A stretch of DNA of 64,000 nt from Candidatus Nealsonbacteria bacterium DGGOD1a (GCA_022530585.1 CP092821.1:134222-198221), one strand, 5' to 3'; numbered from the stretch's first letter, positions 20,397 to 34,359 are shown. The notes: a model not told the origin generated them from the letters alone. Numbers and translations are program-made.

Positions 20397-20470
20397 GGTG
20401 GGCGTAGCTCAACGGTTAGAGTTTCGCACTGTGGATGCGAAGGTTGGGGGTCCGAATCCCCTCGCTCACC
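20397..20470 (+). tRNA. tRNA-His (anticodon GTG) with G-1
   Basis: Extra 5' G, acceptor GTGGGCG/CGCTCAC, anticodon stem TCGCA/TGCGA with loop CTGTGGA, T arm GGGGG-TCCGAAT-CCCCT. Confidence 0.85.
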
Positions 20471-20550
20471 CTGCTAGAATTTGAAGCTAAAATTTAATAC
20501 CCTCTACGGGAAATCCGAACCGCTTAACATTTGTTGAGCTTTTTGGTTTG
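20471..20550 (+). repeat. tRNA-His 3'-flank unit, copy U1 (repeated at 28901 and 30349)
   Basis: CTGCTAGAATTTGAAGCTAAAATTTAATACCCTCTACGGGAAATCCGAACC...; followed by TTGACA(20559)-16 nt-TAGTAT(20581). Confidence 0.6.
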
Positions 20551-20653
20551 GCAGCGAGTTGACAGAAATCTGTTTTCGTATAGTATTTTAGGGTAAGATC
20601 GTGAGCACATCTGCTCATAAAAAATAAGGTCGGATTATTAAGGAGAGGATACA

Positions 20654-21127
20654 GTGATACTGGATAAGAGTTTAATCCAAAAAGCGATTGAATTGGTAAC
20701 GCCTGGTGCCGTTGCCATATTGAACAGCGAGGGGACTACATGGGGACCAAAGTTTGCTCATGGGTATGTATACGCAGAAGAATCTGGAGCCGGAGATGTT
20801 GAATTCCATTTCGGCGACATAACTGTTCCATGGGATTCAAAATGGGGCGAGCAAAAAGATTTTGCTTATGTTGCATGGAGAAAGCTCAACGCCGCATGGC
20901 GCGAGAAGAAATCAACAAGTGAGGTTGTTGCCCTTGATCCTTGGCGACTGCGAGAAAAGGAATTTCTCTATTCCGGAGGGGCATACAGATATGGAATTGC
21001 AGTAGGTGTATCAGGGGCCTTGGGTAGAACCGATGAAGCTCTGGCCGAGATGGTTCTTTCTGCGATCATTATGTTAGCAAGGATTGAGGCCGATAAGAGA
21101 ATGGCTGAGCATAGGATGGAAATATAA
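20654..21127 (+). CDS. Hypothetical protein, possibly GlcG/DUF336-like
   Basis: GTG start with strong SD AAGGAGAGG; C-terminal GIAVGVSGALGRTDEALAEMV resembles the DUF336 GAIGVSG..D motif (weak). Confidence 0.5.
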   Translation: MILDKSLIQKAIELVTPGAVAILNSEGTTWGPKFAHGYVYAEESGAGDVEFHFGDITVPWDSKWGEQKDFAYVAWRKLNAAWREKKSTSEVVALDPWRLREKEFLYSGGAYRYGIAVGVSGALGRTDEALAEMVLSAIIMLARIEADKRMAEHRMEI

Positions 21128-21196
21128 AGTTTCAATAAAGGGCTTTGCCCGCTGGGGAATATCAACCTCAGTCTTTTTTTACTCACGCTGCTGTAG

Positions 21197-21231
21197 TCAA
21201 ATAGGTTCGAACATCGTATGCCAGACGACCC
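21197..21231 (+). repeat. Cassette-boundary motif copy 1 of 5 (core CGAACATCG-N-W-TGCCAGAYGACC)
   Basis: TCAAATAGGTTCGAACATCGTATGCCAGACGACCC. Confidence 0.7.
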
Positions 21232-21376
21232 AAGTTATTATATCGTCCCGTTGGAGGGCCGATTTTATCGAAATTATAACCAAAAGGATTATTTTCGGTT
21301 TTTAGTTAATTACGATTGTTGGTATTTACAAAAAATATAAATTGTGGTAAATTAATACTACACTAATTCCAAAAAA

Positions 21377-21754
21377 ATGTTCAAAAATCTTAAAAAGTTT
21401 GGTCAACATTTGAAGGAGTTGCGAACCGAAAAGGGGCTAGGATTAAGGGAGTTTTGCAAAATAGTTGATTACGACCCAAGCAATTGGAGCAAAATTGAAA
21501 GAGGTATAATTGCTCCTCCGGCAGATGAAGAAATTTTGAGAAAGTGGGCGAAAGTATTGGGTATTTCGGGAAAGGAGGAGGCTTTGAGAGATTTTGTTGA
21601 CGAGGCAAGCATAGCCCAAGGTATAATTCCCGAAGATATCCTTTCAAAGGAAAATGCAGTTGAGTATTTGCCCGCTTTTTTCCGTACCGTTCGTAATGAA
21701 AAGCCGACGAAGGAAGATATTGACAATCTTATCAACACAATAAGAAATGCATAG
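21377..21754 (+). CDS. XRE-family HTH transcriptional regulator
   Basis: LKELRTEKGLGLREFCKIVDYDPSNWSKIERG. Confidence 0.8.
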   Translation: MFKNLKKFGQHLKELRTEKGLGLREFCKIVDYDPSNWSKIERGIIAPPADEEILRKWAKVLGISGKEEALRDFVDEASIAQGIIPEDILSKENAVEYLPAFFRTVRNEKPTKEDIDNLINTIRNA

Positions 21755-21817
21755 AGAAGGCTATGAAAAATACCGGTTGAAAAATTCAGGCAGAAAGTAT
21801 GGGACGATACCATTCCG

Positions 21818-22336
21818 GTGGATATTGAGAGGATTGTTGAATTTGGCTTAAAAATAGACATAATACCTACGCCTGGATTGGCGAGATTGTCCAACGCGGA
21901 CGCGCTCATCACTTCCAATTGGGAAGCGGTTTATATTGATAATGCGAAATATATGGACGAGCGTTATCAAAGCCGGATTCGTTTTTCTTTGGCCCACGAA
22001 ATAGGGCATTTTATTTTACACAAGAAGCTTTACGGAACTTTCGGGATAAACGATATTACAGATTTTTATAAATTTTTTGAGCAAATTTCGACAATTCAAT
22101 ACGGATATTTGGAATCACAGGCAAATAAATTCGCCAATCTCTTATTAATACCTCGCGGCAAATTATCGCAAGAAAGGAATAGTTTTTTGCGGGACTTGGA
22201 GGCGATGGGGAATATGCCATCAATTGAAGATGAAAATGTGTTTAATTCATATTTAGCTATTCCTATGGCCAAAGTTTTCGGGGTATCAGAGAAAGTGGCA
22301 GAAATAGCGTTGGGCAATATAAGGGGAGAAAAGTAG
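21818..22336 (+). CDS. ImmA/IrrE-family metallopeptidase
   Basis: HEXXH LAHEIGHFILH; GTG start is the first start codon after the upstream in-frame stop (21764-21766); paired with upstream XRE gene. Confidence 0.75.
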   Translation: MDIERIVEFGLKIDIIPTPGLARLSNADALITSNWEAVYIDNAKYMDERYQSRIRFSLAHEIGHFILHKKLYGTFGINDITDFYKFFEQISTIQYGYLESQANKFANLLLIPRGKLSQERNSFLRDLEAMGNMPSIEDENVFNSYLAIPMAKVFGVSEKVAEIALGNIRGEK

Positions 22337-22534
22337 AAAATAGGGTAAATGGGAAAGCGCCGTGAAATCAATAAGCTTTGATTTTTAATAAATATCTAAG
22401 AACTTGGACAAATAAAGGGGAATTTACAATAATTCCTTTACCGCGGCGATTTTGTAGCGCAAATCTTCCATATATGCCTCGTCTTGGAGGATTTTGATTA
22501 CTTCGGTTATTAGAGCGGATGGTTCCTGACCCTG

Positions 22535-22936
22535 CTAAAAATTAAGTTCAAATTTGATATGCTGTTTTGTCGTTATCCATTCTTCGGGTTTGGCTTTGAG
22601 CTTGATTTTAAAAAATTTGATTTGGAAAAGCAAAATCATAAAAAATTGTTCGCCCTCGAATAGACCTATTCTTTCGCCCAATGCTTGGAAATTGTCGGTG
22701 ATAAAATACCGCCAGCTACTTTCTTTGGAAATTTTGGGATTGAGATAAATTCGATTGTTTTCCGTGTCCGCTATTCCTAAAAGTTTCTTTTTAGCTTTCC
22801 ACCTAACCAACGGACATTTCCCGCGCCTAAAATAAGGGTTCGCGAATTTTTGCAATAATCTGATTTTTGGTTTCATATTTTGTTGTTGTCCCGTTATGTA
22901 TTTTTCCCATTTTATACTTTTTTTATAAATTAACAA
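22535..22936 (-). CDS. Hypothetical protein (TAG stop followed by in-frame 36-codon conserved segment 22424-22534)
   Basis: 133-aa ORF, no recognisable intact motif. Confidence 0.4.
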   Translation of the reverse strand: MLIYKKSIKWEKYITGQQQNMKPKIRLLQKFANPYFRRGKCPLVRWKAKKKLLGIADTENNRIYLNPKISKESSWRYFITDNFQALGERIGLFEGEQFFMILLFQIKFFKIKLKAKPEEWITTKQHIKFELNF

Positions 22937-23039
22937 AAATCAATAAATATAGAAGTCAAACTTGATAACAGGTAAAATTGAAGTTGACTTTTAAGCGTAA
23001 TGTTATATTTTGATTATTAGCAATTTAGAGGTGATTTCT

Positions 23040-23270
23040 GTGGCATTTGAAGTTAAAGAAGGCGAAAGTTTTGCAGATGCTCTTAAAAGAGAAGTCCGCA
23101 ACGGGGTGTTTGTTGAGATATGTGATGTGCAAAGAATGTGGGCGCAACAAAAGAATATCGCGCGGCGATATTTGTGCCCGTTGCCAAGAAAAACTCGTAC
23201 GCAAAAAGAGAAGACAATAAATCTTCTCATTTTAATTTTTAATGATGAGCGATTGTCTGTTTTAAAATAA
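23040..23270 (+). CDS. Small hypothetical protein
   Basis: GTG 23040 preceded by GAGGTGA SD-like; no motif. Confidence 0.3.
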   Translation: MAFEVKEGESFADALKREVRNGVFVEICDVQRMWAQQKNIARRYLCPLPRKTRTQKEKTINLLILIFNDERLSVLK

Positions 23271-23313
23271 AAAAGACGATGGGCGAATTGATTTTATCTT
23301 CGCAACATCGACC

Positions 23314-23964
23314 TTATGCGTATTGTTCTATTGGGCTAAGGCAATTTGTTTTTGTAAATTCCAAATTTTGCAAATCAATTGCCAAATCCAGCATTTTTCT
23401 AAACTCTTGTAAATTCAATTTTCCTTTTATCCTTACCTCCATTTTTCTGCTTACGGCATTGTATATATGCACCTGCCAATCCTCAAACCCCGTAAGCCAG
23501 CAGTAGCATTGGGCTTGGAATGTTCCCGCTATTATTTGCCGTTCTTTGTTGCAAGGATAGCGGTAGGTTTTCAACTCCAAGGCTTCACCGGTATCAATGT
23601 TTAACTTGTCGGGCTGTCCCACAACTTTAATTCTTTGCCCGATATTCTTGCAATAATAATACCGGGGGAATATTTCATCCTGCTCGTATCCCAGGAGCCT
23701 GTGCAGTTCGTTTCCGTTCGGGATTGAACTTTCCGGCCTCCAAGTGGTGTTTAGCCACCAAGTTTCATCTCCGTTAAAGAACAACAGCTTTGTCGCTTCT
23801 CCCGCGGTTATTTTCCTTTCATTCGGCGCAATGTTTTCAACGCATATCCGTATTTTGCTTTTGATGACACCACACCCTTTTTGCCCGCTTATTTTTAGTG
23901 GCTTGTCGAATTTTAAATTTGTAAGCCACTGTATAATGGTGGCATAAATCGAACAATAAGGCAA
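23314..23964 (-). CDS. PD-(D/E)XK nuclease-like (RecB/Cas4-like core motifs)
   Basis: 216 aa; GQPDKL ... EALELKT (D..ExK) followed by QAQCYCW (QxxxY). Confidence 0.45.
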   Translation of the reverse strand: MPYCSIYATIIQWLTNLKFDKPLKISGQKGCGVIKSKIRICVENIAPNERKITAGEATKLLFFNGDETWWLNTTWRPESSIPNGNELHRLLGYEQDEIFPRYYYCKNIGQRIKVVGQPDKLNIDTGEALELKTYRYPCNKERQIIAGTFQAQCYCWLTGFEDWQVHIYNAVSRKMEVRIKGKLNLQEFRKMLDLAIDLQNLEFTKTNCLSPIEQYA

Positions 23965-24123
23965 TTAAGTTTTTTTAAAAGGAATTAAGCTATATTGCGG
24001 CCAATTTTAGCTCGTTGATTGCCTTGATTTTGAACATTAGGCTTTCAATATAATTTCGGTCTTCCAGTATCTTCATTAACTGCGTTATAATACCATTTGG
24101 TACGCGACCCCATTTGCCCGTTA

Positions 24124-24357
24124 TTATAACTTGCTTGTTTTCAAGCAAAGTTTGAAATAAAAGGGTAGGAGTAGCTTTAATGATTTTTTGGTAGCGATAC
24201 CGCCGGCTTGTTTGAATATCGCCAGCGATAATACTTGGATGATCGGCAATGCCAATTTTCGACCGGTTTTGTTTGTGAGCTTGTCAATTTTTAATTGTTG
24301 TGAAAAAATACTTACCACCTTCCTGATTTCGTTGTAAAATGGAATTACAACTTTCAT
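24124..24357 (-). CDS. Short hypothetical ORF, possibly a gene remnant
   Basis: 77 aa; double stop; a homolog of the 22424-22534 segment follows in another frame (23990-24123). Confidence 0.3.
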   Translation of the reverse strand: MKVVIPFYNEIRKVVSIFSQQLKIDKLTNKTGRKLALPIIQVLSLAIFKQAGGIATKKSLKLLLPFYFKLCLKTSKL

Positions 24358-24441
24358 GTTGGTGTTGAGTCGGCGATTTACCGGTCGCCGGCTCTGGTGT
24401 CATTTTAGCATTTTTTAGGAGTTTCGTAATTCAAAGAAATT

Positions 24442-24684
24442 ATGAAGAAGATTTTAATCGTTTTATTTTTATTGGTTGGTTTACACTTAATATACTTAAT
24501 ATGGTATTTTGGGGGCTATTTGATTCCAGATAGGGCCGATTGCAGTTTGTATAATTACGAGAGGTGCCCTGTTGGTTGCGAAGCGAGTTGTCATAGTAGC
24601 TGTAAAGCGTGTCTGGATAAAATTTGCGATTGTTCTTCCGGGACCGATGTTAGCATATTCCATTATTTTGGGTGGGGTGAATAA
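24442..24684 (+). CDS. Small membrane-anchored Cys-rich protein
   Basis: 80 aa; TM then CSLYNYERCPVGCEASCHSSCKACLDKICDC; GTTTCGTAATTCAAAG box 5 nt upstream of ATG. Confidence 0.5.
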   Translation: MKKILIVLFLLVGLHLIYLIWYFGGYLIPDRADCSLYNYERCPVGCEASCHSSCKACLDKICDCSSGTDVSIFHYFGWGE

Positions 24685-24789
24685 TTAAGTGTTATGCACA
24701 GATTTTATCCTTTGAGAGATGATATTCAGAGTTGGTGCCATCTTTCTTAAAAGTCAAGGCGGTATGGATATTCTAATTTTTTAAAAAGT

Positions 24790-25182
24790 ATGCAAAACAA
24801 AATCAATAAATTTGTTTATTGGGCGCCGCGAATATTATCAATACTGTTTATATTGTTTTTGGCGATGTTTTCGCTGGATGTTTTTGAAGAGGGCAGGAGC
24901 TGGCAGGAAATCGCCATTGCGTTATTTATGCACAATGTTCCGGTGTTGGCTTTGCTGGCGGTATTGATTATTTCCTGGAAGCGTGAAATCGTGGGCGGCG
25001 TTGCGTTTATCTTGGCGGGCATATTGTATATTGCGATGGTAGCGGCGGGTGTTTTGAAAAATGGGTTTGAGTGGTATATGGTTTCGTGGTTTTTAACAAT
25101 TTCGGGGCCGGCGTTTTTGATTGGCGGTTTATTTTTGGTTGCTTGGCATAGAAAGAAGGATAAAACTATCAAAAAATCTTAA
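24790..25182 (+). CDS. Integral membrane protein (4 predicted TM)
   Basis: 130 aa, four hydrophobic stretches. Confidence 0.6.
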   Translation: MQNKINKFVYWAPRILSILFILFLAMFSLDVFEEGRSWQEIAIALFMHNVPVLALLAVLIISWKREIVGGVAFILAGILYIAMVAAGVLKNGFEWYMVSWFLTISGPAFLIGGLFLVAWHRKKDKTIKKS

Positions 25183-25279
25183 CGGTGAAAATTGCAATAT
25201 AAATTCTCATATTATAAGTTTCGCCGCGAAGTTATAATATGGGATTTGACTACACATTGATAATGTGTATAATTGAGGT

Positions 25280-25543
25280 ATGGAAAATCAAAATAATTCT
25301 ACAACTTATCAGCGGGTTGACATTACCCTTCCGAAGGAAACAGTCAGATTGCTTGAAAAAATCGCCAAGCGAGGCGATAGGAGCCGGTTGGTTGACCAGG
25401 CGATTCGTTATTTTGCCAAGGAAATGAGCCGAACTAATTTGAAAAAGCAGTTGAAAGATGGTGCGATAGTTAACGCTTCGCGAGATTTGAATTTGGTTGA
25501 AGAGTGGTTTTCAATCGATAATGAAGTATGCCCAAGCAAATAA
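25280..25543 (+). CDS. Ribbon-helix-helix (CopG/MazE-like) antitoxin
   Basis: YQRVDITLPKETVRLLEKIAKRGDRSRLVDQAIRYF; 16-nt overlap with mazF. Confidence 0.75.
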   Translation: MENQNNSTTYQRVDITLPKETVRLLEKIAKRGDRSRLVDQAIRYFAKEMSRTNLKKQLKDGAIVNASRDLNLVEEWFSIDNEVCPSK

Positions 25544-25890
25544 TTCCAAAACGAGGCGAGGTTTATTTGGTTAATTTTGACCCAACCATCGGTTCGGAAA
25601 TCAGAAAAACGAGGCCGGCTTTGATTATTCAAAATGATATTGCCAATCGTTATAGCCCGATAACGATTGTCGCGGCGATAACTTTGCAAGTTGGGGAGCG
25701 GATTTATCCAACCGAGGTGTTGATAGAGTTCGGGCGGAGTGATTTAGGCAAGCGGTGCGTGGTTTTGTTGAATCAAGTACGGGCGATTGATAAACAACGA
25801 TTAGTTAAAAGATTGGCGGTTTTTGATTCGGTTTTGATGGAAAAGATAAATCAGGCGTTGGAGATTAGCTTGGGATTAGTGGATTTATAA
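25528..25890 (+). CDS. mazF: MazF/PemK-family endoribonuclease toxin
   Basis: PKRGEVYLVNFDPTIGSEIRKTRPALIIQND. Confidence 0.85.
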   Translation: MPKQIIPKRGEVYLVNFDPTIGSEIRKTRPALIIQNDIANRYSPITIVAAITLQVGERIYPTEVLIEFGRSDLGKRCVVLLNQVRAIDKQRLVKRLAVFDSVLMEKINQALEISLGLVDL

Positions 25891-25921
25891 ACAGAAAGAG
25901 AGGGTTGAATTACCTCTCTAA

Positions 25922-26506
25922 TTATTGTTGCATAAACCAGGGCATCCCTACTCTTGCACTTGTTGCGTCCTCAAGGCCATTTCCGTCATCAAAAATTTCC
26001 TTTAATGTTAGTGGGAAATCTCTGATTAGTGGGAGGGGGCCGAGAAGATTTGTGAGCGAGAAGAACATTTCAGTTGTTTCCTCGTCAACTTTTACGGGAA
26101 GTCCAAGATTGTGTGCGTAGCTTGCCAGTTTGTTGACGCAATCCCATTGATGGAACCCTCCAAGAATTATCTCGGTTATATTTGAGATTTGGCCAAAGAT
26201 AGATTCCGGGTTAGGGTATTTGCGATGTTGGGTATGTTCTTTGAAGGATAATCCTGCCGAAATTATGGTGTCTTCCGGCTCTATTGTTATCCAACTGGCG
26301 AGCAAATCTTTGTCCGGTTTGTTCGGCGCGTTTTCTTGACCGAATAAAAGCCAGACTATTTTGTATTTTTTCTTACGATACCGTGCGCGAATGATGTCGT
26401 TTAATCTGCGCACATCATATTTGCCGTTTCTGAATTGATAAAAATTACCTATCTCATTTTCAAAGAACGGCTTAATTGGATAGAGGAATAAGAAAACCTT
26501 CATCAA
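25922..26506 (-). CDS. Hypothetical protein, weak isochorismatase/cysteine-hydrolase-like pattern
   Basis: 194 aa; IILGGFHQWDCVNKLASYAHNLGLPVKVDEE resembles the G..td.CV..Ta motif. Confidence 0.4.
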   Translation of the reverse strand: MMKVFLFLYPIKPFFENEIGNFYQFRNGKYDVRRLNDIIRARYRKKKYKIVWLLFGQENAPNKPDKDLLASWITIEPEDTIISAGLSFKEHTQHRKYPNPESIFGQISNITEIILGGFHQWDCVNKLASYAHNLGLPVKVDEETTEMFFSLTNLLGPLPLIRDFPLTLKEIFDDGNGLEDATSARVGMPWFMQQ

Positions 26507-26556
26507 ATTACCTCAATGGCATATTACACCATAATCATTCAAAATCAAGAATTGAT

Positions 26557-26590
26557 GAAGCAGGTGCGAACATCGATTGCCAGACGACCA
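26557..26590 (+). repeat. Cassette-boundary motif copy 2 of 5
   Basis: GAAGCAGGTGCGAACATCGATTGCCAGACGACCA. Confidence 0.7.
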
Positions 26591-26702
26591 AGCTTCAAAA
26601 AGTCGCTCAGCGGGCGGTTTTTTGGCTGGATGGGCGTAGGCGGGGTTTAGAAAAACCAGAGTTGACACCATTTTCACGACACCATTTTTCGTGCGCCAAA
26701 CC

Positions 26703-28170
26703 TGTCAAATACAAGTAGAAATGTCATACCCGGAATTTAAGTAGAAATGTCATACTTGACTTTTGTAGAATTAGTATTGTTATTTCCGGAAAAATATTTT
26801 AACAATTGATTTTTGCGATTTCAGCGGCGATTTGTTTGCGCCAAGGATGATCCGCCGGTGGCTTGGAGATGATTCTTTTTGCCGGTATGGCGGCAATCAA
26901 TTCTTTGGCTTTCAACGGCTTGGCCGGCAGGATTTTGAAGTTTAAATATTTATCCCGCAGACGGATCGCCAGCGATCCGTCGAGCCGCTCTTCCATCAAA
27001 ATTTCATCCTTGCGGCGCACGGTGGCGATCTGCTCTTTGGCGATCTGTATCCATTGGTTTTTGAACCTTATCGTGAAATCATTCTGTACCCGCCTTTGCG
27101 ATTGGACGGAAAATATCGCGTCAAGATTTGAACTTTGAAAATCGGGCAGCTGCCGGTGCAGATCGTTTTTCTTTTTGGGAATCACCGAAAATCTTTGATT
27201 GAAATCCGGAATGAATTCTTCTTTTAAGAATTTGCTGGCCGCGGCGATATCGCTGATGCCGCGCAATCGCAATTCCTTGACCAGCCGGTCCTGCAAAGTG
27301 TCAAAGAGCCGTTCGATTCGGCCTTTGGCTTGCGGGCTGTTGGCGGTGATCAGGGTTATATCCAGTTCCCGGGCGGCTCTCTGAAACTGGGTGATCATTT
27401 CGCTGTTGTCTTTTGCATTTTTGTGATTGATCTTATATGTACTGAATTTATCCAGGTAGATGGCTATCGGTTTGCCTGATTCTTGGAGGTAGCCTTTCCA
27501 GAATTGAAACACATTGATGACGCTTTCGCTATCCGTGAATTCCGCCCGGGTGATCCGGCCGGTGGCATCGTCGACGGAGGCCAACAAACAAGATTCATCG
27601 CCGCGTTTCTCAAACCAGAAGTGGTAACAGCCGTCGAATTGTTCCAGCTCGCCCGGCGATTCTTTGCGTTCTCTTTGGCAGCGGAATTCCTGGTTTTGTT
27701 TTCTTGGTTTGGGCATCCAAATCTTTTTTGCGATCATTAAATTGCGCGTGGTCTGCTTGCCAATTTTTATTCCTTCAACCTCAACCAGTTTTTCATGCGC
27801 CAAGGTCGGGCCGAAATCAGGATACTTTTCTGAAATTATTTGTCCGGATTTTTCCCAGATTTTAAGATCGGTCTTATTGTTGCTTTGCTTGCCTCGCAAG
27901 CCGTGAATGATCCCATTGGCGCCTTTCTCCCGCACTTTGTTGCGCAATCGCTTTACCTGCCTTACCGACCGCCCCAGCTGCTTGGCCGCATCGCCCGGAG
28001 TGATTTCTTTGGCGATCAATTTTCTTATTACTTCATACCTGTCCAGCTCTTTTTGCGTCATCTTGAATAATTCTTTTTCCATATTGGTGGGTTATGTTTT
28101 ATCCACCAATCATACCAGGTATGACATTTCTACTTGGACGCAAGTATGACATTACTACTTTTAAATGACA
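26703..28170 (-). mobile_element. Insertion sequence, ISNCY/IS1202-group-like, with 15-bp direct duplication
   Basis: ~27-bp imperfect terminal IRs starting TGTCA (23/27 match). Each end holds two copies of AAGTAGAAATGTCATAC (26713, 26739; inverted at 28119, 28144). Flanked by TTCGTGCGCCAAACC at 26688-26702 and 28171-28185. Confidence 0.75.
26799..28082 (-). CDS. DDE (rve-type) transposase, ISNCY/IS1202-like
   Basis: 427 aa; N-terminal HTH MTQKELDRYEVIRKL..AAKQLGRSVRQVKRL..GLRGKQSNNK; catalytic region DD..D..SPQAKGRIERLFDTLQDRLVKELRL. Confidence 0.85.
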   Translation of the reverse strand: MEKELFKMTQKELDRYEVIRKLIAKEITPGDAAKQLGRSVRQVKRLRNKVREKGANGIIHGLRGKQSNNKTDLKIWEKSGQIISEKYPDFGPTLAHEKLVEVEGIKIGKQTTRNLMIAKKIWMPKPRKQNQEFRCQRERKESPGELEQFDGCYHFWFEKRGDESCLLASVDDATGRITRAEFTDSESVINVFQFWKGYLQESGKPIAIYLDKFSTYKINHKNAKDNSEMITQFQRAARELDITLITANSPQAKGRIERLFDTLQDRLVKELRLRGISDIAAASKFLKEEFIPDFNQRFSVIPKKKNDLHRQLPDFQSSNLDAIFSVQSQRRVQNDFTIRFKNQWIQIAKEQIATVRRKDEILMEERLDGSLAIRLRDKYLNFKILPAKPLKAKELIAAIPAKRIISKPPADHPWRKQIAAEIAKINC

Positions 28171-28267
28171 TTCGTGCGCCAAACCTTGACAGAATGAGCC
28201 AAAAACTGGTATCTTTTAACTATCAACGCCCCGGCCAGCCGTAAGGTCCGCCGGGGTTTTCCTAAAC

Positions 28268-28870
28268 ATGGAAAGCATATTATTTGTCGATGGCCGCAAT
28301 TTTATCAATAAGATTGAAGTTGTTTTGCGCGAAAATAAAATCAAGAGCATTGATTATTCTTTGTATAATTTTGGCGGGTTGATGGATAAAGTTTTGACGG
28401 GAATAAGAGTTGACCGCCGATTGTTCTATTTTGGAAAACTGGTCAAACATTCGGAAACTTTGGAGAAATCAGCCAAACTTATCGAAAACCAAAGAAAACT
28501 AAAAACCAGCTTGGAAAAGCAAGGTTTTGAAATTGTCATTGCCGGCAGGATTCGCGGCCATTTGGAAAAATGCCAAAAGGGACATGAAATGTTGGTTTTT
28601 AAGGAAAAGGGCGTGGATGTGAAACTTGCGGTTGATATGGTTACGTTGGCTTGCAATAATAAACTGAAAACAGCCATTGTTGGCAGTTCGGATTCTGATT
28701 TGCAGCCGGCAATCAGTGAATTAAAAACGCACGGTGTTGAAAGAATCTATCTTGGCTTTGAAACGGCTCCCAACAAGGGGCTAACATTTACCACCAACAG
28801 AACGATCCTTATTAGAAATTCCGAGGTTTTGGAATTTTTACCAAAAACCTTATTCTCAAAAGATAGTTAA
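28268..28870 (+). CDS. NYN-domain (LabA-like) predicted RNase
   Basis: ILFVDGRNF ... GVDVKLAVDM ... IVGSSDSDLQPAI. Confidence 0.75.
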   Translation: MESILFVDGRNFINKIEVVLRENKIKSIDYSLYNFGGLMDKVLTGIRVDRRLFYFGKLVKHSETLEKSAKLIENQRKLKTSLEKQGFEIVIAGRIRGHLEKCQKGHEMLVFKEKGVDVKLAVDMVTLACNNKLKTAIVGSSDSDLQPAISELKTHGVERIYLGFETAPNKGLTFTTNRTILIRNSEVLEFLPKTLFSKDS

Positions 28871-28901
28871 ACAGGCTCGAACATCGTTTGCCAGACGACC
28901 C
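28867..28901 (+). repeat. Cassette-boundary motif copy 3 of 5
   Basis: TTAAACAGGCTCGAACATCGTTTGCCAGACGACCC, starts inside the NYN stop codon region. Confidence 0.7.
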
Positions 28902-28985
28902 TGCCAGAATTTGAAGCTGAAATCGACTTACCCTCTACGGGGAATCCGAACCCGCGAACATGCGTTGAGCGGTTTTGGGTATAGT
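28901..28985 (+). repeat. tRNA-His 3'-flank unit, copy U2
   Basis: CTGCCAGAATTTGAAGCTGAAATCGACTTACCCTCTACGGGGAATCCGAACCC... about 80 percent identical to U1 by eye; followed by TTGACA at 28999. Confidence 0.6.
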
Positions 28986-29061
28986 TGGTGTGCTTTGCTT
29001 GACATAATGTATACTAAAGTGTTATATAGTATATATCTTAATGATCTAAGCATACTAACTT

Positions 29062-30192
29062 ATGAAAATAGAGATAGGCAAGCTCCAAGGACAAAAAGAA
29101 GGATTTTCTGCCTTCGTTCCTTCTCAGTTTCCGCCAGAAGGTATTTTTGATTTAACCGCGTCCACTCTCATTAAGACTTCAGAGGCGGCGCGGTTAGTTG
29201 GAAAATTGGACGGTATTACTCATACGCTTCCCGATTTGGAGTATTTTCTAACGATGTTTGTTAAAAAAGACGCGGCATCGTCGGCGCAAATCGAGGGAAC
29301 AAGAGCGACAATGATCGACGCCATTGAAAAAGCCGCTGGCGTGGCGACTTCGGAAACTGACGCCGATGACATTTTGTTTTACATTAAAGCTCTCGATTAC
29401 GGAGTCGTGCGACTGAAGGAATTTCCGCTTTCGCTAAGATTGATAAGAGAAATCCACGCCCAATTGATGACTGGCGCCCGCGCAAGCCATTTTGCCGATC
29501 CGGGAGAATTCAGAAAATCACCGAACTGGATCGGTGGAACAACCCCATCGAATGCGTTATTCGTTCCGCCGCCAGTCGAAGAAATGCATCGGGCGCTCAA
29601 CGATTTTGAAAAATTCCTTCATAACGAAAAATCAACTTTGCCGCTGGTCCATATTGCCATCGCGCACGGGCAATTCGAAACTATCCATCCTTTTTTGGAT
29701 GGAAACGGAAGGACGGGCCGGTTACTGATTACTATGTTGTTGTGCCATAGAAATTTGCTGGAGCGGCCAGTGCTTTTCCTCTCCTCCTATTTCAAAAAGC
29801 ACCAAAAAATTTATTATCAGAAGCTTCATGGTTACCATTACGGCGAAGTTGAAGAATGGATAAATTTTTTTCTGGACGGAGTGATTGAAACCGCTAACGA
29901 ATCAATTGCCATATCAAAGTTGATAACCAAAATTCGTGGAAACGACTTAGAGAAAATACAATCGCTGGCCAAAAGAGAATCGGAGAGCGGAGTCAAGGTT
30001 CTTCGGAAATTATACGCGCAACCGATAGTGGCTTCGAAAACGATTATGGACTGGACCGGGTTTACCAGGGCGGGTGCACAGAAGCTGATCGACCGATTTG
30101 TGAAAATCGGAATTTTGGAATTAAAGGAAAACAAAACTGGCTACGACCGTTCCTATATTTATCGCGAATACACAGATGCGTTTTCGGCTTAG
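29062..30192 (+). CDS. Fic-family protein (AMPylase-type, canonical motif)
   Basis: HPFLDGNGRTGRLL; Fic_N-like N-terminus and C-terminal winged-helix region. Confidence 0.9.
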   Translation: MKIEIGKLQGQKEGFSAFVPSQFPPEGIFDLTASTLIKTSEAARLVGKLDGITHTLPDLEYFLTMFVKKDAASSAQIEGTRATMIDAIEKAAGVATSETDADDILFYIKALDYGVVRLKEFPLSLRLIREIHAQLMTGARASHFADPGEFRKSPNWIGGTTPSNALFVPPPVEEMHRALNDFEKFLHNEKSTLPLVHIAIAHGQFETIHPFLDGNGRTGRLLITMLLCHRNLLERPVLFLSSYFKKHQKIYYQKLHGYHYGEVEEWINFFLDGVIETANESIAISKLITKIRGNDLEKIQSLAKRESESGVKVLRKLYAQPIVASKTIMDWTGFTRAGAQKLIDRFVKIGILELKENKTGYDRSYIYREYTDAFSA

Positions 30193-30259
30193 GGAAATAA
30201 ATGGCGGGTTAAGGGGCGGGGTAATCGTTAAAGCGAATTTGACGCTGTATAATATTCCG

Positions 30260-30294
30260 TCAAACAGGCGCGAACATCGGTTGCCAGATGACCC
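30260..30294 (+). repeat. Cassette-boundary motif copy 4 of 5
   Basis: TCAAACAGGCGCGAACATCGGTTGCCAGATGACCCC. Confidence 0.7.
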
Positions 30295-30348
30295 CTTCTA
30301 CGCTAAAGCTTCGAAGGGCAAGCTCTTCGACAAGTTCAGGCCTGCGGT

Positions 30349-30420
30349 CTGCCAATTTTGAAACTAAAATTTGCTATCCTCTGCGGCAAATCCGCGCTGA
30401 TTTTAAGCTAGTTGTTTTGT
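30349..30420 (+). repeat. tRNA-His 3'-flank unit, copy U3 (more diverged)
   Basis: CTGCCAATTTTGAAACTAAAATTTGCTATCCTCTGCGGCAAATCCGCGC... Confidence 0.5.
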
Positions 30421-30431
30421 TGCAGTTAGTT

Positions 30432-30482
30432 GCCTTAATCGTATCAAAATGATACGATTAAGGCATATAAATGATACGATTA
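30432..30482 (+). promoter_or_regulatory. Candidate operator: perfect 14-bp-arm palindrome plus a third half-site over the Fic-like gene start
   Basis: GCCTTAATCGTATC-AAAAT-GATACGATTAAGGC, then GATACGATTA again at 30473-30482. Confidence 0.55.
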
Positions 30483-31540
30483 TGCAACAATTATCCCAAA
30501 AACAGCAAAAAATCCTTTCGATTTTGGTAAAAAATGGCAAGATGTCGTCTTCAGCTATTCGCGAGGCGTTGCTCAAAGCAAAAGAAAATGTGGCACTGAT
30601 TACTGTTAAAAGAGCGTTATCGGAAATGGTTGATGCCGGGGTTATAATTGAGGCCGGCGGGGGAAGATCAACCGTTTATGGAATTGGTATTCCCGGCAGG
30701 GTATTTTTTGATATTGATGCAAGGGATTATTGCGCCGTTGAACCGGATTGGCGTTATGGGTTGAGCCGCTATAATTTTGATTTGTTTGCAAAGATGCCCA
30801 CGGAAGTATTTTATGACGAAGAAAGGGCAAGGCTTGAGGCGGCGACAAAAACCTACAAACAAAGATCGCAAAATGTTACACCGGTAACGCAAAAAAAAGA
30901 ATTGGAGCGGCTGATAATTGAGCTATCGTGGAAATCTTCAAAAATAGAGGGCAACACTTACACATTGTTGGAAACCGAAAAACTTATTTTGGAAAATAAA
31001 AAGGCAGTTGGCCGCAGCGAAAACGAAACCCAGATGATATTGAACCATAAAGACGCTTTTGATTTTGTTCGCCAAAACCAGCAGGAATTCAAAAAAATAA
31101 GCCGCGCCAATCTTGAAAAACTCCACTCGATTTTAGTGAAAGATATGGAGGTCGGTTTTGGTTTGCGCAAGGCGCCGGTTGGGATCACGGGCACCAAATA
31201 CCAGCCGCTTGATAATATTTACCAGGTCGAAGAAGCGGTTAAGACGCTTTCCGCGGCGGCGGATAGAATGGAGAATATTTTTGCAAAGTCATTGCTGGCG
31301 GTTTTGGGCATAAGCTATGTTCAGCCGTTTGAAGACGGCAACAAGCGCACCGGCCGCTTAATGGCCAATGCATTGCTTTTATCCCACAGTCTGGCGCCGC
31401 TTTCGTATCGCAGCGTCGACGAAACGGATTACCGCCAGGCAACAATAGTATTTTACGAACTCAATTCGATGATACCTTTCAAAGAGATTTTTATCGGACA
31501 ATGCGAATTTGCGGCCAATAATTACGCGCTTGGATTATAA
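30482..31540 (+). CDS. wHTH + Fic-fold protein with degenerate active-site motif
   Basis: QPFEDGNKRTGRLMANALL in place of HxFx(D/E)GNGRxxR; N-terminal ILSILVKNGKMSSSAIREAL..ITVKRALSEMV; ATG 30482 preferred to 30449, which lies inside the palindrome. Confidence 0.75.
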   Translation: MQQLSQKQQKILSILVKNGKMSSSAIREALLKAKENVALITVKRALSEMVDAGVIIEAGGGRSTVYGIGIPGRVFFDIDARDYCAVEPDWRYGLSRYNFDLFAKMPTEVFYDEERARLEAATKTYKQRSQNVTPVTQKKELERLIIELSWKSSKIEGNTYTLLETEKLILENKKAVGRSENETQMILNHKDAFDFVRQNQQEFKKISRANLEKLHSILVKDMEVGFGLRKAPVGITGTKYQPLDNIYQVEEAVKTLSAAADRMENIFAKSLLAVLGISYVQPFEDGNKRTGRLMANALLLSHSLAPLSYRSVDETDYRQATIVFYELNSMIPFKEIFIGQCEFAANNYALGL

Positions 31541-31574
31541 GAACAAATGCGAACATCGTATGCCAGACGACCCC
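31541..31574 (+). repeat. Cassette-boundary motif copy 5 of 5
   Basis: GAACAAATGCGAACATCGTATGCCAGACGACCCC, 1 nt after the Fic-like stop. Confidence 0.7.
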
Positions 31575-31595
31575 GGTAGGGGATGATTTTGTGTC

Positions 31596-31695
31596 ATTGG
31601 AAAAAAATTGCTAATTGGCGGTTTTTAATTTGGTTTTGATGGAAAAAGTAAATCAAGCTTTATAAATGAACTTGGGGTCGGTGGTTGATTTATAA
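31596..31695 (+). pseudogene. Remnant of a second mazF/pemK 3' end
   Basis: Translates NLAVFNLVLMEKVNQAL*MNLGSVVDL* versus RLAVFDSVLMEKINQALEISLGLVDL* at 25811-25890. Confidence 0.55.
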
Positions 31696-31719
31696 CCTTT
31701 TGGGGTTTATAAAATTAAT

Positions 31720-32493
31720 ATGGCTAAAGAGAATAAATTAATAAATGAATCCAACTTAAGATTGATTTGCGAATTGCATTTGGGGTTGGAGCGGCAGGGG
31801 CCGGGCAGTCCTGAAATGACTATCAAGGCATTGAGCTTTGTGGATAATCTTGATAAAAATTCGCGGGTGGCGGATTTGGGTTGCGGAACCGGCGGGCAGA
31901 CGATGGTTTTGGCGCAAAATATTGACGGGAATATCACCGGCGTGGATTTTTTCCCCGGTTTTATAGATATTTTTAACGACAATGCCAAAAAATTAAATCT
32001 TCAAGGAAGGGTGAAGGGGATTGTCGGTTCAATGGAGAATCTTTCTTTTCAAAAAGAAGAATTTGACTTGATATGGTCGGAAGGGGCGATTGCCGGGATT
32101 GGTTTTGAGAAAGGGTTAAATTATTGGAGGGATTTTCTAAAAAAAGACGGCTATGTTGCTTTAACTTACGAGTCGTGGTTTACCGATGAACGCCCGGCGG
32201 AAATTGAAAAGTGGTGGGTTGATAATGTTCCTGAAATAAGCACGATAGGAAATAATATTTCAATAATGCAAAAATCGGGATATATTCCTGTTGCCGCATT
32301 TATATTGCCCGAAAATTGCTGGACGGACAATTATTTTGTCCCGCGGGAAGCGGCGGGAAAAGCGCTTTTGGAAAAATACGCCGGGAACAAAACTGTGGAA
32401 GATTTTATCGCAAATATGAGATACGAAGCGGAATTGTATTCAAAATACAAGCAGTATTACGGATATGTTTTTTATATCGGGAAAAAGATTTAA
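31720..32493 (+). CDS. Class I SAM-dependent methyltransferase
   Basis: Motif I VADLGCGTGGQTMVLA; 257 aa. Confidence 0.8.
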   Translation: MAKENKLINESNLRLICELHLGLERQGPGSPEMTIKALSFVDNLDKNSRVADLGCGTGGQTMVLAQNIDGNITGVDFFPGFIDIFNDNAKKLNLQGRVKGIVGSMENLSFQKEEFDLIWSEGAIAGIGFEKGLNYWRDFLKKDGYVALTYESWFTDERPAEIEKWWVDNVPEISTIGNNISIMQKSGYIPVAAFILPENCWTDNYFVPREAAGKALLEKYAGNKTVEDFIANMRYEAELYSKYKQYYGYVFYIGKKI

Positions 32494-32585
32494 CGGCTTT
32501 CCAAAATTGGTGGAACTCAATTAAAATTTCTCAGAAGCAAGACACCTGCGAACCACACATGCTATAATTAAAGATAATAATAACT

Positions 32586-32687
32586 TTACATTACGAAACC
32601 ATCGTTTTTAAATGTTTTGAAGGGGTCGCACCCCTGCGATTACACAGGGGAACGACCCCAAAATGCAAAGCGTTTCGTGATTCAAAA
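32586..32687. repeat. Palindromic intergenic element family A, short-core copy (inverted orientation)
   Basis: CATTACGAAACC...GAAGGGGTCGCACCCCTGCGATTACACAGGGGAACGACCCC...CAAAGCGTTTCGTGATTCAAAA. Confidence 0.65.
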
Positions 32688-32702
32688 TAATAAATAAAAA
32701 AT

Positions 32703-33191
32703 ATGGAAAAAAAGATATTCGCGGTTGTTTTATTTTCGTTTTCCTTGTTTACATTTTCGCCGTTGGCGGCGAACGCGGCGTGTTCGCAGGTGGCGGGGAA
32801 AACATATTATAGCGATAGCGTGAGTTACTTTAAGGATTCGGCGTGCCACCAAGAAATGAGTGCGGCCGATGTCGAGGCGGCGGGCGTTGGTTATATTTCC
32901 ACGGGAAGCGCGAATTGCAAATATAATATTTCAAAAAAACAATATACCGACGGCACTTCTTTTTTTCTCAATAATAAATGTACCGATGAAGCCGCGCCGG
33001 GAGAAACCGCGGCCGCGCCCACGACTCAAACCGTGACTGCCCAAACCCAAACCCAAACGCAAGCGCAGGTTGCGGTCGCTGACGCGACTCAATACGCGCA
33101 AATGAACCAGAGGATCGCGGCGCTTGAAAATCAAGTAAAAATTTTAATGCAAATTATCACGCAGGTCTTGGCGCTGTTGGCGAATAGATAA
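32703..33191 (+). CDS. Secreted protein with Thr/Gln-rich linker and C-terminal coiled-coil tail
   Basis: Signal peptide ending LAANA|A; ends QRIAALENQVKILMQIITQVLALLANR. Confidence 0.6.
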   Translation: MEKKIFAVVLFSFSLFTFSPLAANAACSQVAGKTYYSDSVSYFKDSACHQEMSAADVEAAGVGYISTGSANCKYNISKKQYTDGTSFFLNNKCTDEAAPGETAAAPTTQTVTAQTQTQTQAQVAVADATQYAQMNQRIAALENQVKILMQIITQVLALLANR

Positions 33192-33267
33192 AAGGGAAGC
33201 ATTGCGCTTGTTTTATGCGCGAGTTGCCCGACGGCGTGTATATTTTTGATTAAGTTCTTGTTATAAT

Positions 33268-33427
33268 GGGTCTGTCGCCGAATTGGCTTCAACCGCGATT
33301 TCCATTTTTCGGCTGCAAAGAATTCATCATTCGTCGCCGGATTTAGCTTAAATATGCCTCCTCATTCTTCATTCTTTTCGCTCGAAAACTGAAAATTTCG
33401 TTCTGAAGCTAATTCGGCGACAGACCC
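33268..33427. mobile_element. 160-bp MITE-like element, family B, copy 1
   Basis: TIRs GGGTCTGTCGCCGAATTGGCTTCA / TGAAGCTAATTCGGCGACAGACCC; flanked by ATAAT on both sides. Confidence 0.65.
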
Positions 33428-33505
33428 ATAATGAACGCGGGAGGGCGCCGCATCAAAATCGGCGGTTGCGATTTTGCCGGTTTGCCGTAACAAAATCAAA
33501 TCAAT

Positions 33506-33898
33506 ATGAGCGAAACAAAAAAAGTTTTGGTCATTGACGACGAAATCGTTCTGCTTGATCTTTTGAGTTCAAAAATAAGCCAAAACGGTTTTTTCGTGAT
33601 CGAGGCGCATGACGGCGACGAGGGCTTGCAAAAAGCGCTGGCCGAACATCCCGATCTGGTGTTGCTGGATATTATAATGCCCAAGATGGATGGCATCACA
33701 ATGCTGAAGAAACTGCGAGAAGATCCTTGGGGAAAAACGGCACGGGTGATCATTCTTTCCAATTTGAATACCGCCGAGGCGGTGGAAAAATCTTTGGCCA
33801 ACGGCGCTTATGATTATTTGGTGAAGATCGACTACACGCTTGACGATTTGGTGAGGATTGTTAAAAAAAGGCTTGAAAAGAAAAGGGATTCCCGATGA
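33506..33898 (+). CDS. Single-domain response regulator (receiver)
   Basis: VIDDE, LVLLDIIMPKMDG, ILSN, YLVK. Confidence 0.85.
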   Translation: MSETKKVLVIDDEIVLLDLLSSKISQNGFFVIEAHDGDEGLQKALAEHPDLVLLDIIMPKMDGITMLKKLREDPWGKTARVIILSNLNTAEAVEKSLANGAYDYLVKIDYTLDDLVRIVKKRLEKKRDSR

Positions 33899-33907
33899 TC
33901 AATAAAT

Positions 33908-34105
33908 ATGGAAGAAGATATTCAAAAAAAGTTGGAAGATCAAGGCAAAAAACTCGACGATATTTACAATTCGGTCGAGAAAACGAGAAAATATTTCTTG
34001 TGGATACTTGTCGTAACCGCGGTTATGATAATTTTACCTTTGATCGGTTTGGCAATCGCGATCCCGCAATTTTTGGACGCATACGCCGCCGCGCTGAATT
34101 TTTAG
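33908..34105 (+). CDS. Small membrane protein
   Basis: 65 aa, charged N-terminus then one TM (FLWILVVTAVMIILPLIGLAIAI). Confidence 0.45.
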   Translation: MEEDIQKKLEDQGKKLDDIYNSVEKTRKYFLWILVVTAVMIILPLIGLAIAIPQFLDAYAAALNF

Positions 34106-34242
34106 CATCTTGCCAAGTCGGGATTTGACTTTCAGCCTTTTTTGCGGTTAAATAGAGCCGTGTTTGATTTTGATGTCGGAATTTATGATTTTTTGAAAAT
34201 TGGAAATTAGAAATTGAAAATTGTCCCGCCGCGGCGGGACTC

Positions 34243-34314: not shown

Positions 34315-34359
34315 CAAATTTAAGAGCCGCTCTTGCAAGAGCGGCTCTTAAATTTGAGC
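34312..34359 (+). terminator. Intrinsic terminator after tRNA-Gly
   Basis: GCTCAAATTTAAGAGCCGCTCT-TGCA-AGAGCGGCTCTTAAATTTGAGC followed by GGTTTTTGTTTTT. Confidence 0.65.

Follow-up and report, generated by a model that had tools for sequence, protein, structure and literature searches.

In staphylococci, elements of the staphylococcal cassette chromosome (SCC) insert serially at the 3′ end of rlmH (orfX), including pseudo-SCC elements that lack ccr. The pdif modules of Acinetobacter plasmids and the integrative mobile elements exploiting Xer (IMEX) rely on Xer, and the sfx sites of the R64 shufflon are acted on by Rci. The genomes of Patescibacteria (the Candidate Phyla Radiation, CPR) are tiny and regarded as poor in mobile elements, and the bacteria cannot so far be cultivated on their own; to our knowledge, the acquisition of defence and accessory genes by these organisms is largely unknown. 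In Prochlorococcus, islands at tRNA genes are built by tycheposons (bioRxiv 10.1101/2020.12.28.424599). Here we analyze a 64-kb stretch of DNA from Candidatus Nealsonbacteria bacterium DGGOD1a (‘the window’, meaning that stretch at its full length), in which an accessory island begins at the last bases of a tRNA-His gene and contains five copies of a 33-nt repeat that we call the core. With a little better than even confidence, we read this locus as a cassette platform of an integron- or SCC-like kind that is served by a recombinase encoded elsewhere. Full-text searches of the literature brought up no description of such an element.

The source of the window is the 344-kb contig JARDUI010000019.1 of metagenome-assembled genome (MAG) GCA_029216075.1, and identical sequence is present in Joint Genome Institute (JGI) metagenome 3300028923. 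The genome has nearly no Shine-Dalgarno sites and carries two type IV pilus clusters. After a pilus operon come tRNA-Arg (20236-20308) and the array anchor, tRNA-His with anticodon GUG (20398..20471, plus strand), the latter identified with ARAGORN and Rfam, and the island spans 20472 to about 32690. A preliminary description of the window had noted by eye that the DNA directly 3′ of tRNA-His is richer in A+T, and the G+C content is indeed 0.412 over 20472-32700, against 0.483 in the left flank and 0.484 in the right. It had also counted five copies of one motif and three copies of the sequence flanking tRNA-His, and both counts hold. The motif CGAACATCGNNTGCCAGAYGACC has exactly five exact matches, all on the plus strand, at 21208, 26567, 28878, 30271 and 31550, with none in 100 shuffles; the flank copies, which we call element ‘a’, lie at 20472-20549, 28902-28982 and 30350-30400, to which we add a degenerate fourth at 22534-22565. 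The motif is the centre of the 33-nt core AAACAGGTKCGAACATCGWTTGCCAGACGACCC, whose five copies fall within 12 kb, leaving the remaining 52 kb of the window without any, and an nhmmer model of the extended motif detected no further copy in the 64 kb.

To place the core in other genomes, we relied on an exact-pattern scan for the motif, which matched 32 metagenome stretches and 13 stretches in species-representative genomes (contig stretches of other genomes and metagenomes compared with the window bear L-numbers below). Five high-G+C chance or coding matches (L016, L024, L030, L060, L065) were excluded. The remaining approximately 40 core-bearing stretches are A+T-rich contigs whose informative names are all Paceibacterota, Minisyncoccales or ‘Patescibacteria group’, and the few binned under other phyla are taken to be mis-binned. 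Across 55 distinct core contexts from these exact-pattern matches, 90-100% invariance holds from position -9 to position +23, with an abrupt loss of conservation beyond either end. When the cassette carrying a 157-aa gene is compared between the window and L029, nucleotide identity is 68% overall while the core keeps 29 of its 33 bases. With tRNA-His the core has in common only ACCC(TGC) and the T-loop-like GGTTCGAAC, and it is unchanged where the tRNA-His differs (window type versus L027 type). No inverted repeats occur within the core, no Rfam family matches it, and RNAalifold gave -4.3 kcal/mol with no covariation. The integron R′ box GTTRRRY is absent from the 33-nt consensus, and the sequence upstream is variable and T-rich. 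Since the core usually lies between the terminator of its own gene and that of the next cassette, a role at the level of DNA is favored.

Cores are organized as arrays on one strand, with up to nine copies in a 16-kb stretch of DAOSDI010000007.1 (L062+L057) and six in 4.8 kb of L058, as detected with the nhmmer model. The 36 non-redundant core-to-core units have a median length of 844 nt (range 184-4474). Open reading frames (ORFs) of at least 80 aa run in the direction of the core in 47 cases versus 7 against it, and the median distance from the stop codon to the start of the core is 47 nt. Besides the window, six contig groups (L015, L017/L021, L025, L027/L059, L033 and L053) have a tRNA-His directly 5′ of their first cassette and on its strand, usually with tRNA-Arg before it. 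The tRNA-His sequences of the seven groups differ substantially, yet the same element ‘a’ comes after each; in all seven the junction falls just after the discriminator base C73 and the tRNA is intact. The heptamer ACCCTGC, which spans the 3′ end of tRNA-His in the window (20468-20474), is the sole sequence common to this end and to the 3′ end of every core with the bases that follow it. The nearest named relative with both island flanks is a Candidatus Paceibacterota MAG (L027/L059), whose island is likewise bounded by a response regulator and tRNA-Gly (34243-34315 in the window); between these conserved flanks and tRNA-His, the cassettes of the window and of L027 differ. Array cargo includes Fic, MazF, ImmA with DUF4411, NYN, NUDIX, SNase and restriction-modification genes, which is typical accessory and defence material, and recurrent array proteins of unassigned family (320, 241, 160 and 111 aa) resemble secreted, membrane or cargo proteins.

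The preliminary description had proposed comparing relatives to see whether segments come and go as units bounded by the motifs. They do: cassettes occur in different orders, and homology breaks at the edges of the core. In all-against-all alignments of the stretches, a 4-nt window at the core’s left edge takes in 65 of the 210 internal starts, and positions +1 to +3 of its right edge take in 26 of the 190 internal ends, when cores make up about 3% of the compared sequence. The same cassettes have different neighbors and orders across contigs, and a cassette encoding a 160-aa protein precedes two different cassettes within one contig. The most informative case is a cassette shared by L033 and L055 (‘a’ plus a gene for a phosphate-binding protein), 95% identical over 1100 nt, which stands behind tRNA-His in L033 (...CGCTCACC directly followed by CTGCTATAATTTG) and behind a core in L055 (...CCAGACGACC directly followed by CTGCTATAATTTG). 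Identity begins at ACCCTGC (ACC/CTGC, the slash marking the junction) and the distinctive bases of this ‘a’ variant appear 5 nt further on, so that the exchange point lies within approximately 9 nt, a region too short for RecA-type homology. This junction also assigns ‘a’ to the cassette downstream of it. Identical core variants were found in 6 of 14 pairs sharing the upstream cassette versus 4 of 30 sharing the downstream cassette, on a background of about 10%, which weakly indicates that a core belongs to the gene preceding it. The two L055 cores that flank the phosphate-binding-protein cassette (1030-1086 and 2290-2343) are of the same rare variant (GGCG...GCTT) and share some 22 nt upstream, which suggests that an extended core was duplicated or converted during insertion.

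Element ‘a’ consists of TGCYARAGTTTGAAGCTAAAATT, a short variable stretch, TACCCTCTACGGGAAATCCGAAC and a terminator hairpin, and it is found behind many cores, always in the form ...ACC/CTGCY... We sorted the flanks of 65 distinct junctions with enough downstream sequence using a pattern classifier. The core is followed by ‘a’ directly in 21 and by an insert of 44-195 nt ending in RCC and then ‘a’ in nine, while 20 have a short form, ‘b’ (CTGC/AAG, TTCAAAAAG, a hairpin and TTTTTGGTAKRAT); the other 15 include a few that are really ‘a’, such as the flank of core 3 in the window. The hairpin of ‘b’ is homologous to the terminator of ‘a’ (Fic cassette of the window versus L031), and ‘b’ is therefore ‘a’ minus its middle part. 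An arrangement of hairpin plus -10 element is also found before ordinary genes in related organisms and is thus a local promoter style, from which it follows that the cassettes, having it in their 5′ modules, carry their own expression signals. In L071 (2440-2470), L073 (1120-1160) and at many cassette starts, a hairpin (ATCGCC-N5-GGCGG) is followed by TTTTTGGTAGAAT 8-15 nt before the start codon; this appears to be the usual promoter layout here and implies leaderless or very short-leader mRNAs.

Two kinds of insert occupy the junction between core and ‘a’. Mini-inserts made of CTTCGACAAGCTCAGGGCAAG variants are present in the window (30295-30349) and in L008, L009, L018, L022 and L027, always end in RCC just before TGCY, and may be footprints of the insertion mechanism. 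In L018 (821-940 and 3088-3207) and L058 (49-185 and 604-720), the space between core and ‘a’ is filled exactly by a longer insert, some 120-135 nt in length, that contains inverted repeats (CTGTAGTAGAG...CTCGCAACACACTACAGGG...GGCAACC) and has the look of a miniature element or structured RNA exploiting this junction.

The preliminary description had seen no recombinase in the window, and this holds over a wider region. Among the genes at 254,487-337,837 of JARDUI010000019.1, 83 kb that take in the whole window and about 10 kb on each side, precomputed Pfam matches include no integrase, resolvase or transposase family. The one insertion sequence (IS) product of the window, of the ISNCY family, has only a weak HTH match there and was identified through NCBIfam. 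We considered that a recombinase might be hidden among the unannotated ORFs of the arrays. Pfam searches of 118 ORF-cluster representatives from the approximately 40 related stretches gave one DDE transposase and no Phage_integrase, Resolvase, Recombinase or rve among the matches listed, these being the best 25 of 83 and 25 of 27 families, within which a strong integrase match would rank and a weak one might not. No integrase or integrase remnant was found in the islands of the window and L027, read from flank to flank. A phage or plasmid origin was rejected, as pattern scans of viral contigs and BLAST of phage and plasmid records for the core and ‘a’ were all empty.

Several identities for the core were tried and set aside. 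A decayed 3′ half of tRNA-His was suggested by the stem TCGCA/TGCGA, upstream of and within the core in the window, which matches the anticodon stem of the neighboring tRNA-His; this idea fell because tRNA-His genes whose anticodon stems are quite unlike it are followed by the same core, a T-stem is missing, and the upstream TTCGCAC accompanies only a subset of cores. An attC-like hairpin was rejected on fold energies that are not significant and the lack of covariation, and a known RNA on the lack of an Rfam match. A dif/Xer site would call for a skew switch and a dyad, neither of which was found, and a DNA uptake sequence, a repetitive extragenic palindromic (REP) sequence or a miniature inverted-repeat transposable element (MITE) for a dispersed repeat, which the core is not. 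Dyad candidates of the tyrosine- or large-serine-recombinase type (GGTTCGAAC..ATTGCCAG / CTGCCAAA GTTTGAAGC), in which the spacing of the core half is 5 nt longer than that of the tRNA half, are attractive by eye and remain a lead only, as their inverted-repeat score does not exceed that of shuffles (T variant, p 0.06; G variant, p 0.5). The ISNCY element was discarded as a mover of cassettes: with its inverted repeats and 15-bp duplication inside one cassette, it is an ordinary secondary insertion.

On the reading that we favor, a unit would comprise a short 5′ module (‘a’ or the shorter hairpin form ‘b’, with terminator and promoter), one or a few genes, a terminator and the 33-bp core. The core would act as the cassette-borne recombination site, in the role of attC, and the 3′ end of tRNA-His as the docking site, in the role of attI. 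A recombinase from elsewhere in the genome or from a helper element would join a circular cassette to ...ACC/CTGC..., either at the end of the tRNA or at whichever core is already present. New cassettes would enter beside the tRNA or between cassettes, older ones would be pushed distally and decay, and the tRNA would stay intact. We infer a dedicated recombinase, circular intermediates and strand exchange within ACCCTGC. The preliminary description had already proposed repeated site-specific insertion at tRNA-His, or an integron-like mechanism whose recombinase lies elsewhere, and that proposal gains support from the arrays in approximately 40 other stretches, the anchoring at tRNA-His and the base-exact junction. 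More tentatively, Paceibacteria-type Patescibacteria might own a gene-capture platform unrelated to integrons, with a non-palindromic 33-bp site, a tRNA-His dock and a trans-encoded recombinase of an unexpected or unrecognized family, through which self-expressed cassettes of about 1 kb (toxins, Fic, nucleases, restriction systems) would circulate among ultra-small episymbionts. A conserved, searchable 33-bp signature at a fixed chromosomal address offers a direct handle on the flexible gene pool of Patescibacteria, with cassettes recoverable by polymerase chain reaction or read-mining, as is done with attC sites for integrons, and the concrete pair of DNA sites that it defines can serve in seeking the recombinase. 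If the enzyme is new, a compact site-specific integration system with a long asymmetric site would be of interest as a genome-engineering tool.

A number of observations sit poorly with a cassette platform. As no recombinase was found, its central actor is hypothetical and the mechanism is deduced from its traces. Lacking a significant dyad and a stable hairpin, the core resembles neither the core site of a classical tyrosine recombinase nor an attC: dyad symmetry of the core with ‘a’ gave p 0.06-0.5 against shuffles, and the core folds no better than shuffles (z -0.84 and -0.24 for the top strand, -2.2 for the bottom strand). Conservation of the core is inflated in appearance by a search with an exact pattern that demanded 21 of its bases, against which stand the nine unselected left bases and the right-hand C, conserved as strongly as the selected ones, and the many contigs with several exact copies. 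The counts of break points and of core variants include overlapping assemblies of the same populations and are hence not independent. Flanks behind the core fall into several classes, and about one third are without ‘a’. The right end of the cassette shared by L033 and L055 breaks about 30 nt before the core in L055, and some other break points also lie outside the core. Within the window, a multi-gene stretch of 5.3 kb (21232-26557) has no core, the junction at 22533/22534 is core-less, and no core is found at the distal end of the island. Another kind of evidence concerns genes that occur without the motif, which the preliminary description had held against insertion if seen in related genomes. 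Distant homologues of the 157-aa gene of the first cassette, at 42-54% amino-acid identity, do sit in core-free contexts; this shows that the gene does not need the motif and does not contradict mobility of the cassette. Tracking those homologues to longer arrays was given up, since they lie in such contexts. One, at 42%, belongs to a run of same-strand accessory genes in L066 (JAXDBQ010000011.1, 1-13634; Fic twice, GmrSD, ArsR/ArsP, thioredoxin) without core or ‘a’ and with intergenic repeats of its own, a 79-nt family and a ATTGCCGAGGTCTGACCTCGGCAAAT hairpin, which may be a different cassette dialect.

Three other explanations deserve consideration. The one that we take most seriously, while thinking it unlikely, does without a dedicated recombinase and treats the core (33 nt) and ‘a’ (about 80 nt) as homology arms in conserved linkers, through which cassettes would be exchanged by RecA after DNA uptake. 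Such ‘minimal mobile element’ logic is known from Neisseria. The absence of a recombinase near any array keeps it alive, the locus is flanked by type IV pilus genes, and it would accommodate the break points outside the core, the duplication in L055 of a core with about 22 nt upstream on both sides of a cassette, and the weak tracking of the upstream cassette by core variants (identical in 6/14 versus 4/30). It is weakened by the 9-nt junction: ACCCTGC is all that the tRNA-His end and the core have in common, not enough for homologous recombination, and yet the L033/L055 junction is exact there. A sharp, near-invariant block of 33 nt with variable sequence on both sides also suggests a protein-binding site over a homology arm, and an arm of 33 nt is at the lower limit for RecA exchange.

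An ordinary tRNA-targeted island, assembled by serial self-mobile elements whose integrases have since been deleted and whose att arms are left over as cores, would resemble accretion of the tycheposon or SCC kind, and we judge it improbable. Tycheposons are a well-documented case of tandem accretion at tRNA genes, in which att sites are repeated and remnants degraded (bioRxiv 10.1101/2020.12.28.424599), and the distal part of our island is decayed, with a mazF remnant and no core after the methyltransferase. However, units of 0.2-4.5 kb with a median of 844 nt, usually of one gene, have no room for an integrase, and neither an integrase nor a fragment of one appears among the matches listed for the 118 ORF clusters of approximately 40 stretches or in the two islands that are covered completely. 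Nor does the repeat copy part of the resident tRNA; it stays constant when tRNA-His changes, and it has no match in viral contigs or in phage and plasmid records. We give similarly little credence to the proposal that the core is a cis-acting expression element (an insulator, operator or RNA-processing signal) with no role in mobility, the array being a gene cluster. It would explain why the core is always 3′ of an ORF and in its orientation, and, as read from the sequence, the junction lies just after the discriminator base of the tRNA, the site of 3′ processing. Against this, a terminator usually parts the core from its ORF and a second one comes after the core; there is no covariation, stable fold or Rfam family; homologues of the same gene occur elsewhere without a core; and the anchoring at tRNA-His, the shuffling and the exact junctions are left unexplained.

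Returning to the island as a row of cassettes, its units can be followed one by one from the tRNA outward. The preliminary description had it cut into segments by the five motifs and three flank copies; the five cores and three copies are there, and the division is uneven, with the core-free 5.3 kb and a sixth, core-less junction. S0 (20472-21231) consists of ‘a’, the 157-aa gene and core 1. Its 5′ module, copy 1 of ‘a’ (20472..20549, plus strand; TGCYARAGTTTGAAGCTAAAATT..TACCCTCTACGGGAAATCCGAAC plus terminator hairpin), has a terminator-like site at 20522-20539. The gene (20654..21127, plus strand) has no Pfam or NCBIfam match and belongs to a rare family of 7 clusters, and core 1 (21199..21231, plus strand, 43.1 bits) ends the unit; the homologous cassette, 68% identical in nucleotides through to the core, occurs twice in L029 and also in L062/L057. 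S1 (21232-22533) contains an XRE-type HTH gene (21377-21754, plus strand; Pfam HTH_31, E 8e-10), an ImmA/IrrE M78 peptidase gene (21818-22336, plus strand; Peptidase_M78, E 1.3e-11) and a minus-strand gene fragment ending ...CTGACC. At the core-less junction 22533/22534 (22425..22565, plus strand), this fragment, ending ...GGTTCCTGACC, is followed by the degenerate ‘a’ CTGCTAAAAATTAAGTTCAAATTT. The left side of the junction is 85% identical to L025 2895-3026, where ...CTGACC is followed by the canonical ‘a’ CTGCTGAAGTTTGAAGCTAAAATT.

S2 (22534-26590) is a multi-gene unit. After the degenerate ‘a’, it has minus-strand ORFs at 22535-22936 and 23314-23964, whose function is not assigned, and a 77-aa ORF (24124-24357, minus strand) that resembles by eye the N-terminus of a 268-aa ORF in L064 (3412-4218). 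By our own attribution, the L064 ORF probably being the DDE_Tnp_1_3 match among these loci, this is likely the remnant of a second IS inside S2. There follow DUF7670 (24790-25182) and an RHH antitoxin with MazF (25280-25890), both from Pfam, a 194-aa ORF (25922-26506, minus strand) and core 2 (26558..26590, plus strand, 43.5 bits). The RHH-MazF pair and its promoter (25246-25890) share 84-86% identity with L037, L029 and L057, and the best promoter-like site starts exactly at 25246. S3 (26591-28901) begins with ‘b’, and 112 nt after core 2 its 5′ region is interrupted by the ISNCY-family element (26703-28170, or 26688..28185 with the duplications, minus strand), which encodes a 427-aa transposase (26799-28082; NCBIfam ISNCY_2, E 7e-116). 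Its 27-nt inverted repeats and the 15-bp target duplication TTCGTGCGCCAAACC, read from the sequence, identify it as a later, secondary insertion into this cassette. L054 has the end of a related IS next to its array (150-426), at 72% identity. The gene of S3 encodes an NYN-domain RNase (28268..28870, plus strand; Pfam NYN, E 1.6e-13), and the unit ends in core 3 (28869..28901, plus strand, 47.6 bits). The NYN cassette is 81% identical to L063 4860-5533, where a degenerate core comes next.

S4 (28902-30294) starts directly after core 3 with copy 2 of ‘a’ (28902..28982, plus strand, E 1e-23), followed by a Fic gene (29062..30192, plus strand; Pfam Fic_N and Fic) and core 4 (30262..30294, plus strand, 41.4 bits); the 5′ region of the Fic gene is 82% identical to L031, where it stands behind a core and a short ‘b’ flank. 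In S5 (30295-31573), a 55-nt mini-insert (CCTTCTACGCTAAAGCTTCGAAGGGCAAG...) and copy 3 of ‘a’ (30350-30400, 56 nt after core 4) together occupy 30295..30400 on the plus strand. They are followed by a winged-helix and Fic gene (30449..31540, plus strand, Pfam), which is 81% identical to L054 and, across core, ‘a’ and gene, 72% to L027, and by core 5, the weakest (31541..31573, plus strand, 34.8 bits). The distal decayed unit S6 (31574 to about 32690, plus strand) has no core and holds a 3′ remnant of mazF (31614-31684, plus strand) and a class I methyltransferase gene (31720-32493, plus strand, profile match). Over 31614..32493 it aligns at 84% identity with L037 2566-3431, in which that methyltransferase comes after an intact RHH-MazF, and by this alignment S6 is a truncated form of the unit intact in L037. 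Core scores drop distally, from 43, 44, 48 and 41 to 35 bits in the window and as 50, 41, 18 and 24 bits in L027 (nhmmer), which, in a small sample, fits entry near the tRNA and decay farther off. Profile matches thus bear out the XRE, ImmA, RHH, MazF, NYN, Fic and methyltransferase genes and the single IS listed in the preliminary description, together with HTH-Fic, while its PD-(D/E)XK-like nuclease is not supported by any profile or PDB sequence match among the minus-strand ORFs. The contrast in Shine-Dalgarno sites that it drew between island and flanks proved not to be general: a motif of this type precedes 2 of 14 island genes versus 1 of 43 genes outside (Fisher p = 0.15).

Outside the island, the right flank (32690..34315, plus strand) comprises a 162-aa secreted protein, the response regulator and tRNA-Gly, and is homologous to the right flanks of L027 and L015. 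A 29-nt inverted repeat (93% complementary) surrounds 112 nt between the 162-aa gene and the response regulator (33263-33432), a region kept in L027 at 73% identity. A perfect, loop-free palindrome of 25+25 nt (100% complementary) at 34311-34360 starts in the last bases of tRNA-Gly. Further on, 37529-52302 is a run of very large genes (1647, about 1006-1034, 1420 and 548 aa) with faint Y_Y_Y, Big_13 and Peptidase_M64 signals only, which are split into smaller ORFs in the sister contig ERZ25039527 contig_115924 (L040). The motif GTTTCGTAATTCAAAG(A/T)AAT lies directly 5′ of several start codons inside and outside the island (8387-8407, 24421-24443, 53986-54006, 57040-57060 and, as reverse complement, 32582-32613) and may be a shared promoter or leader signal in a genome nearly free of Shine-Dalgarno sites.

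Set beside described systems, the locus differs from each in a particular way. A 33-nt repeat is of a length that fits clustered regularly interspaced short palindromic repeats (CRISPR; 28-37 nt), but the spacing here is 184-5359 nt with genes between, and CRISPR spacers are 25-50 nt. Dispersed repeats such as REP sequences and bacterial interspersed mosaic elements (BIME), MITEs and DNA uptake sequences, which are scattered through a genome or have terminal inverted repeats or a palindrome, are set apart by the distribution of the core, whose five copies are confined to 12 kb of the window and missing from the remaining 52 kb. The R64 shufflon likewise has an asymmetric recombination site of which one arm and the crossover region are conserved, but its sites are inverted and only invert pilV segments, with no cassettes and no tRNA anchor. 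The pdif modules and IMEX resemble the cassettes in being small gene modules delimited by a short conserved site and, on our reading, in depending for movement on a recombinase encoded outside the module. The pdif and dif sites, however, are 11-6-11 dyads of 28 bp, pdif modules have them inverted, and a chromosomal dif is situated at the replication terminus, whereas the core has no significant dyad, every copy is in direct orientation, and no GC-skew switch occurs at the locus, through which the cumulative skew climbs steadily.

Like tycheposons, the island stands in a streamlined genome, is anchored at a tRNA, and appears to grow by successive insertion at the same site with older material pushed inward and decaying; insertion at an intact tRNA 3′ end is common to tRNA-targeted islands of tycheposon or P4-like accretion. 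Tycheposons, however, carry integrases and replication modules and leave partial tRNA copies, whereas here the repeat is not a tRNA fragment, neither integrases nor their remnants were seen, and the units are of the size of a single gene. With SCC the locus shares serial insertion at the 3′ end of one conserved gene, short direct repeats between units and, on the reading preferred here, recombinase-less units moved by a recombinase supplied in trans. SCC units are 3-60 kb long, the Ccr serine recombinase is normally encoded in at least one of them and the repeat copies the end of the target gene, while our units are about 1 kb, no recombinase was seen, and the repeat is unrelated to the tRNA beyond 7 nt.

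Sedentary chromosomal integrons are a further comparator. The attC sites of integrons are imperfect palindromes of 50-150 nt, conserved in structure and folding as single-stranded DNA, with boxes R″/L″/L′/R′ (RYYYAAC ... GTTRRRY); here the site is a 33-bp block conserved in sequence and without R″/R′ boxes (no GTTRRRY). The primary site is the end of a tRNA gene and not an attI beside intI, no intI tyrosine recombinase, which CALIN do without, is beside it or in view, and the cassettes have their own promoters and terminators. By these defining tests, the system fails to qualify as a true integron. The conservation of its repeat within a lineage recalls the Vibrio cholerae repeats (VCRs) of Vibrio. 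In common with integrons and with clusters of attC sites lacking integron-integrases (CALIN), it lines up short units, of about 0.85 kb in the median, in one orientation, most of them having a single ORF and the site just 3′ of it, with a cargo rich in toxin-antitoxin and unknown genes, shuffling between genomes, and one fixed primary site at one end.

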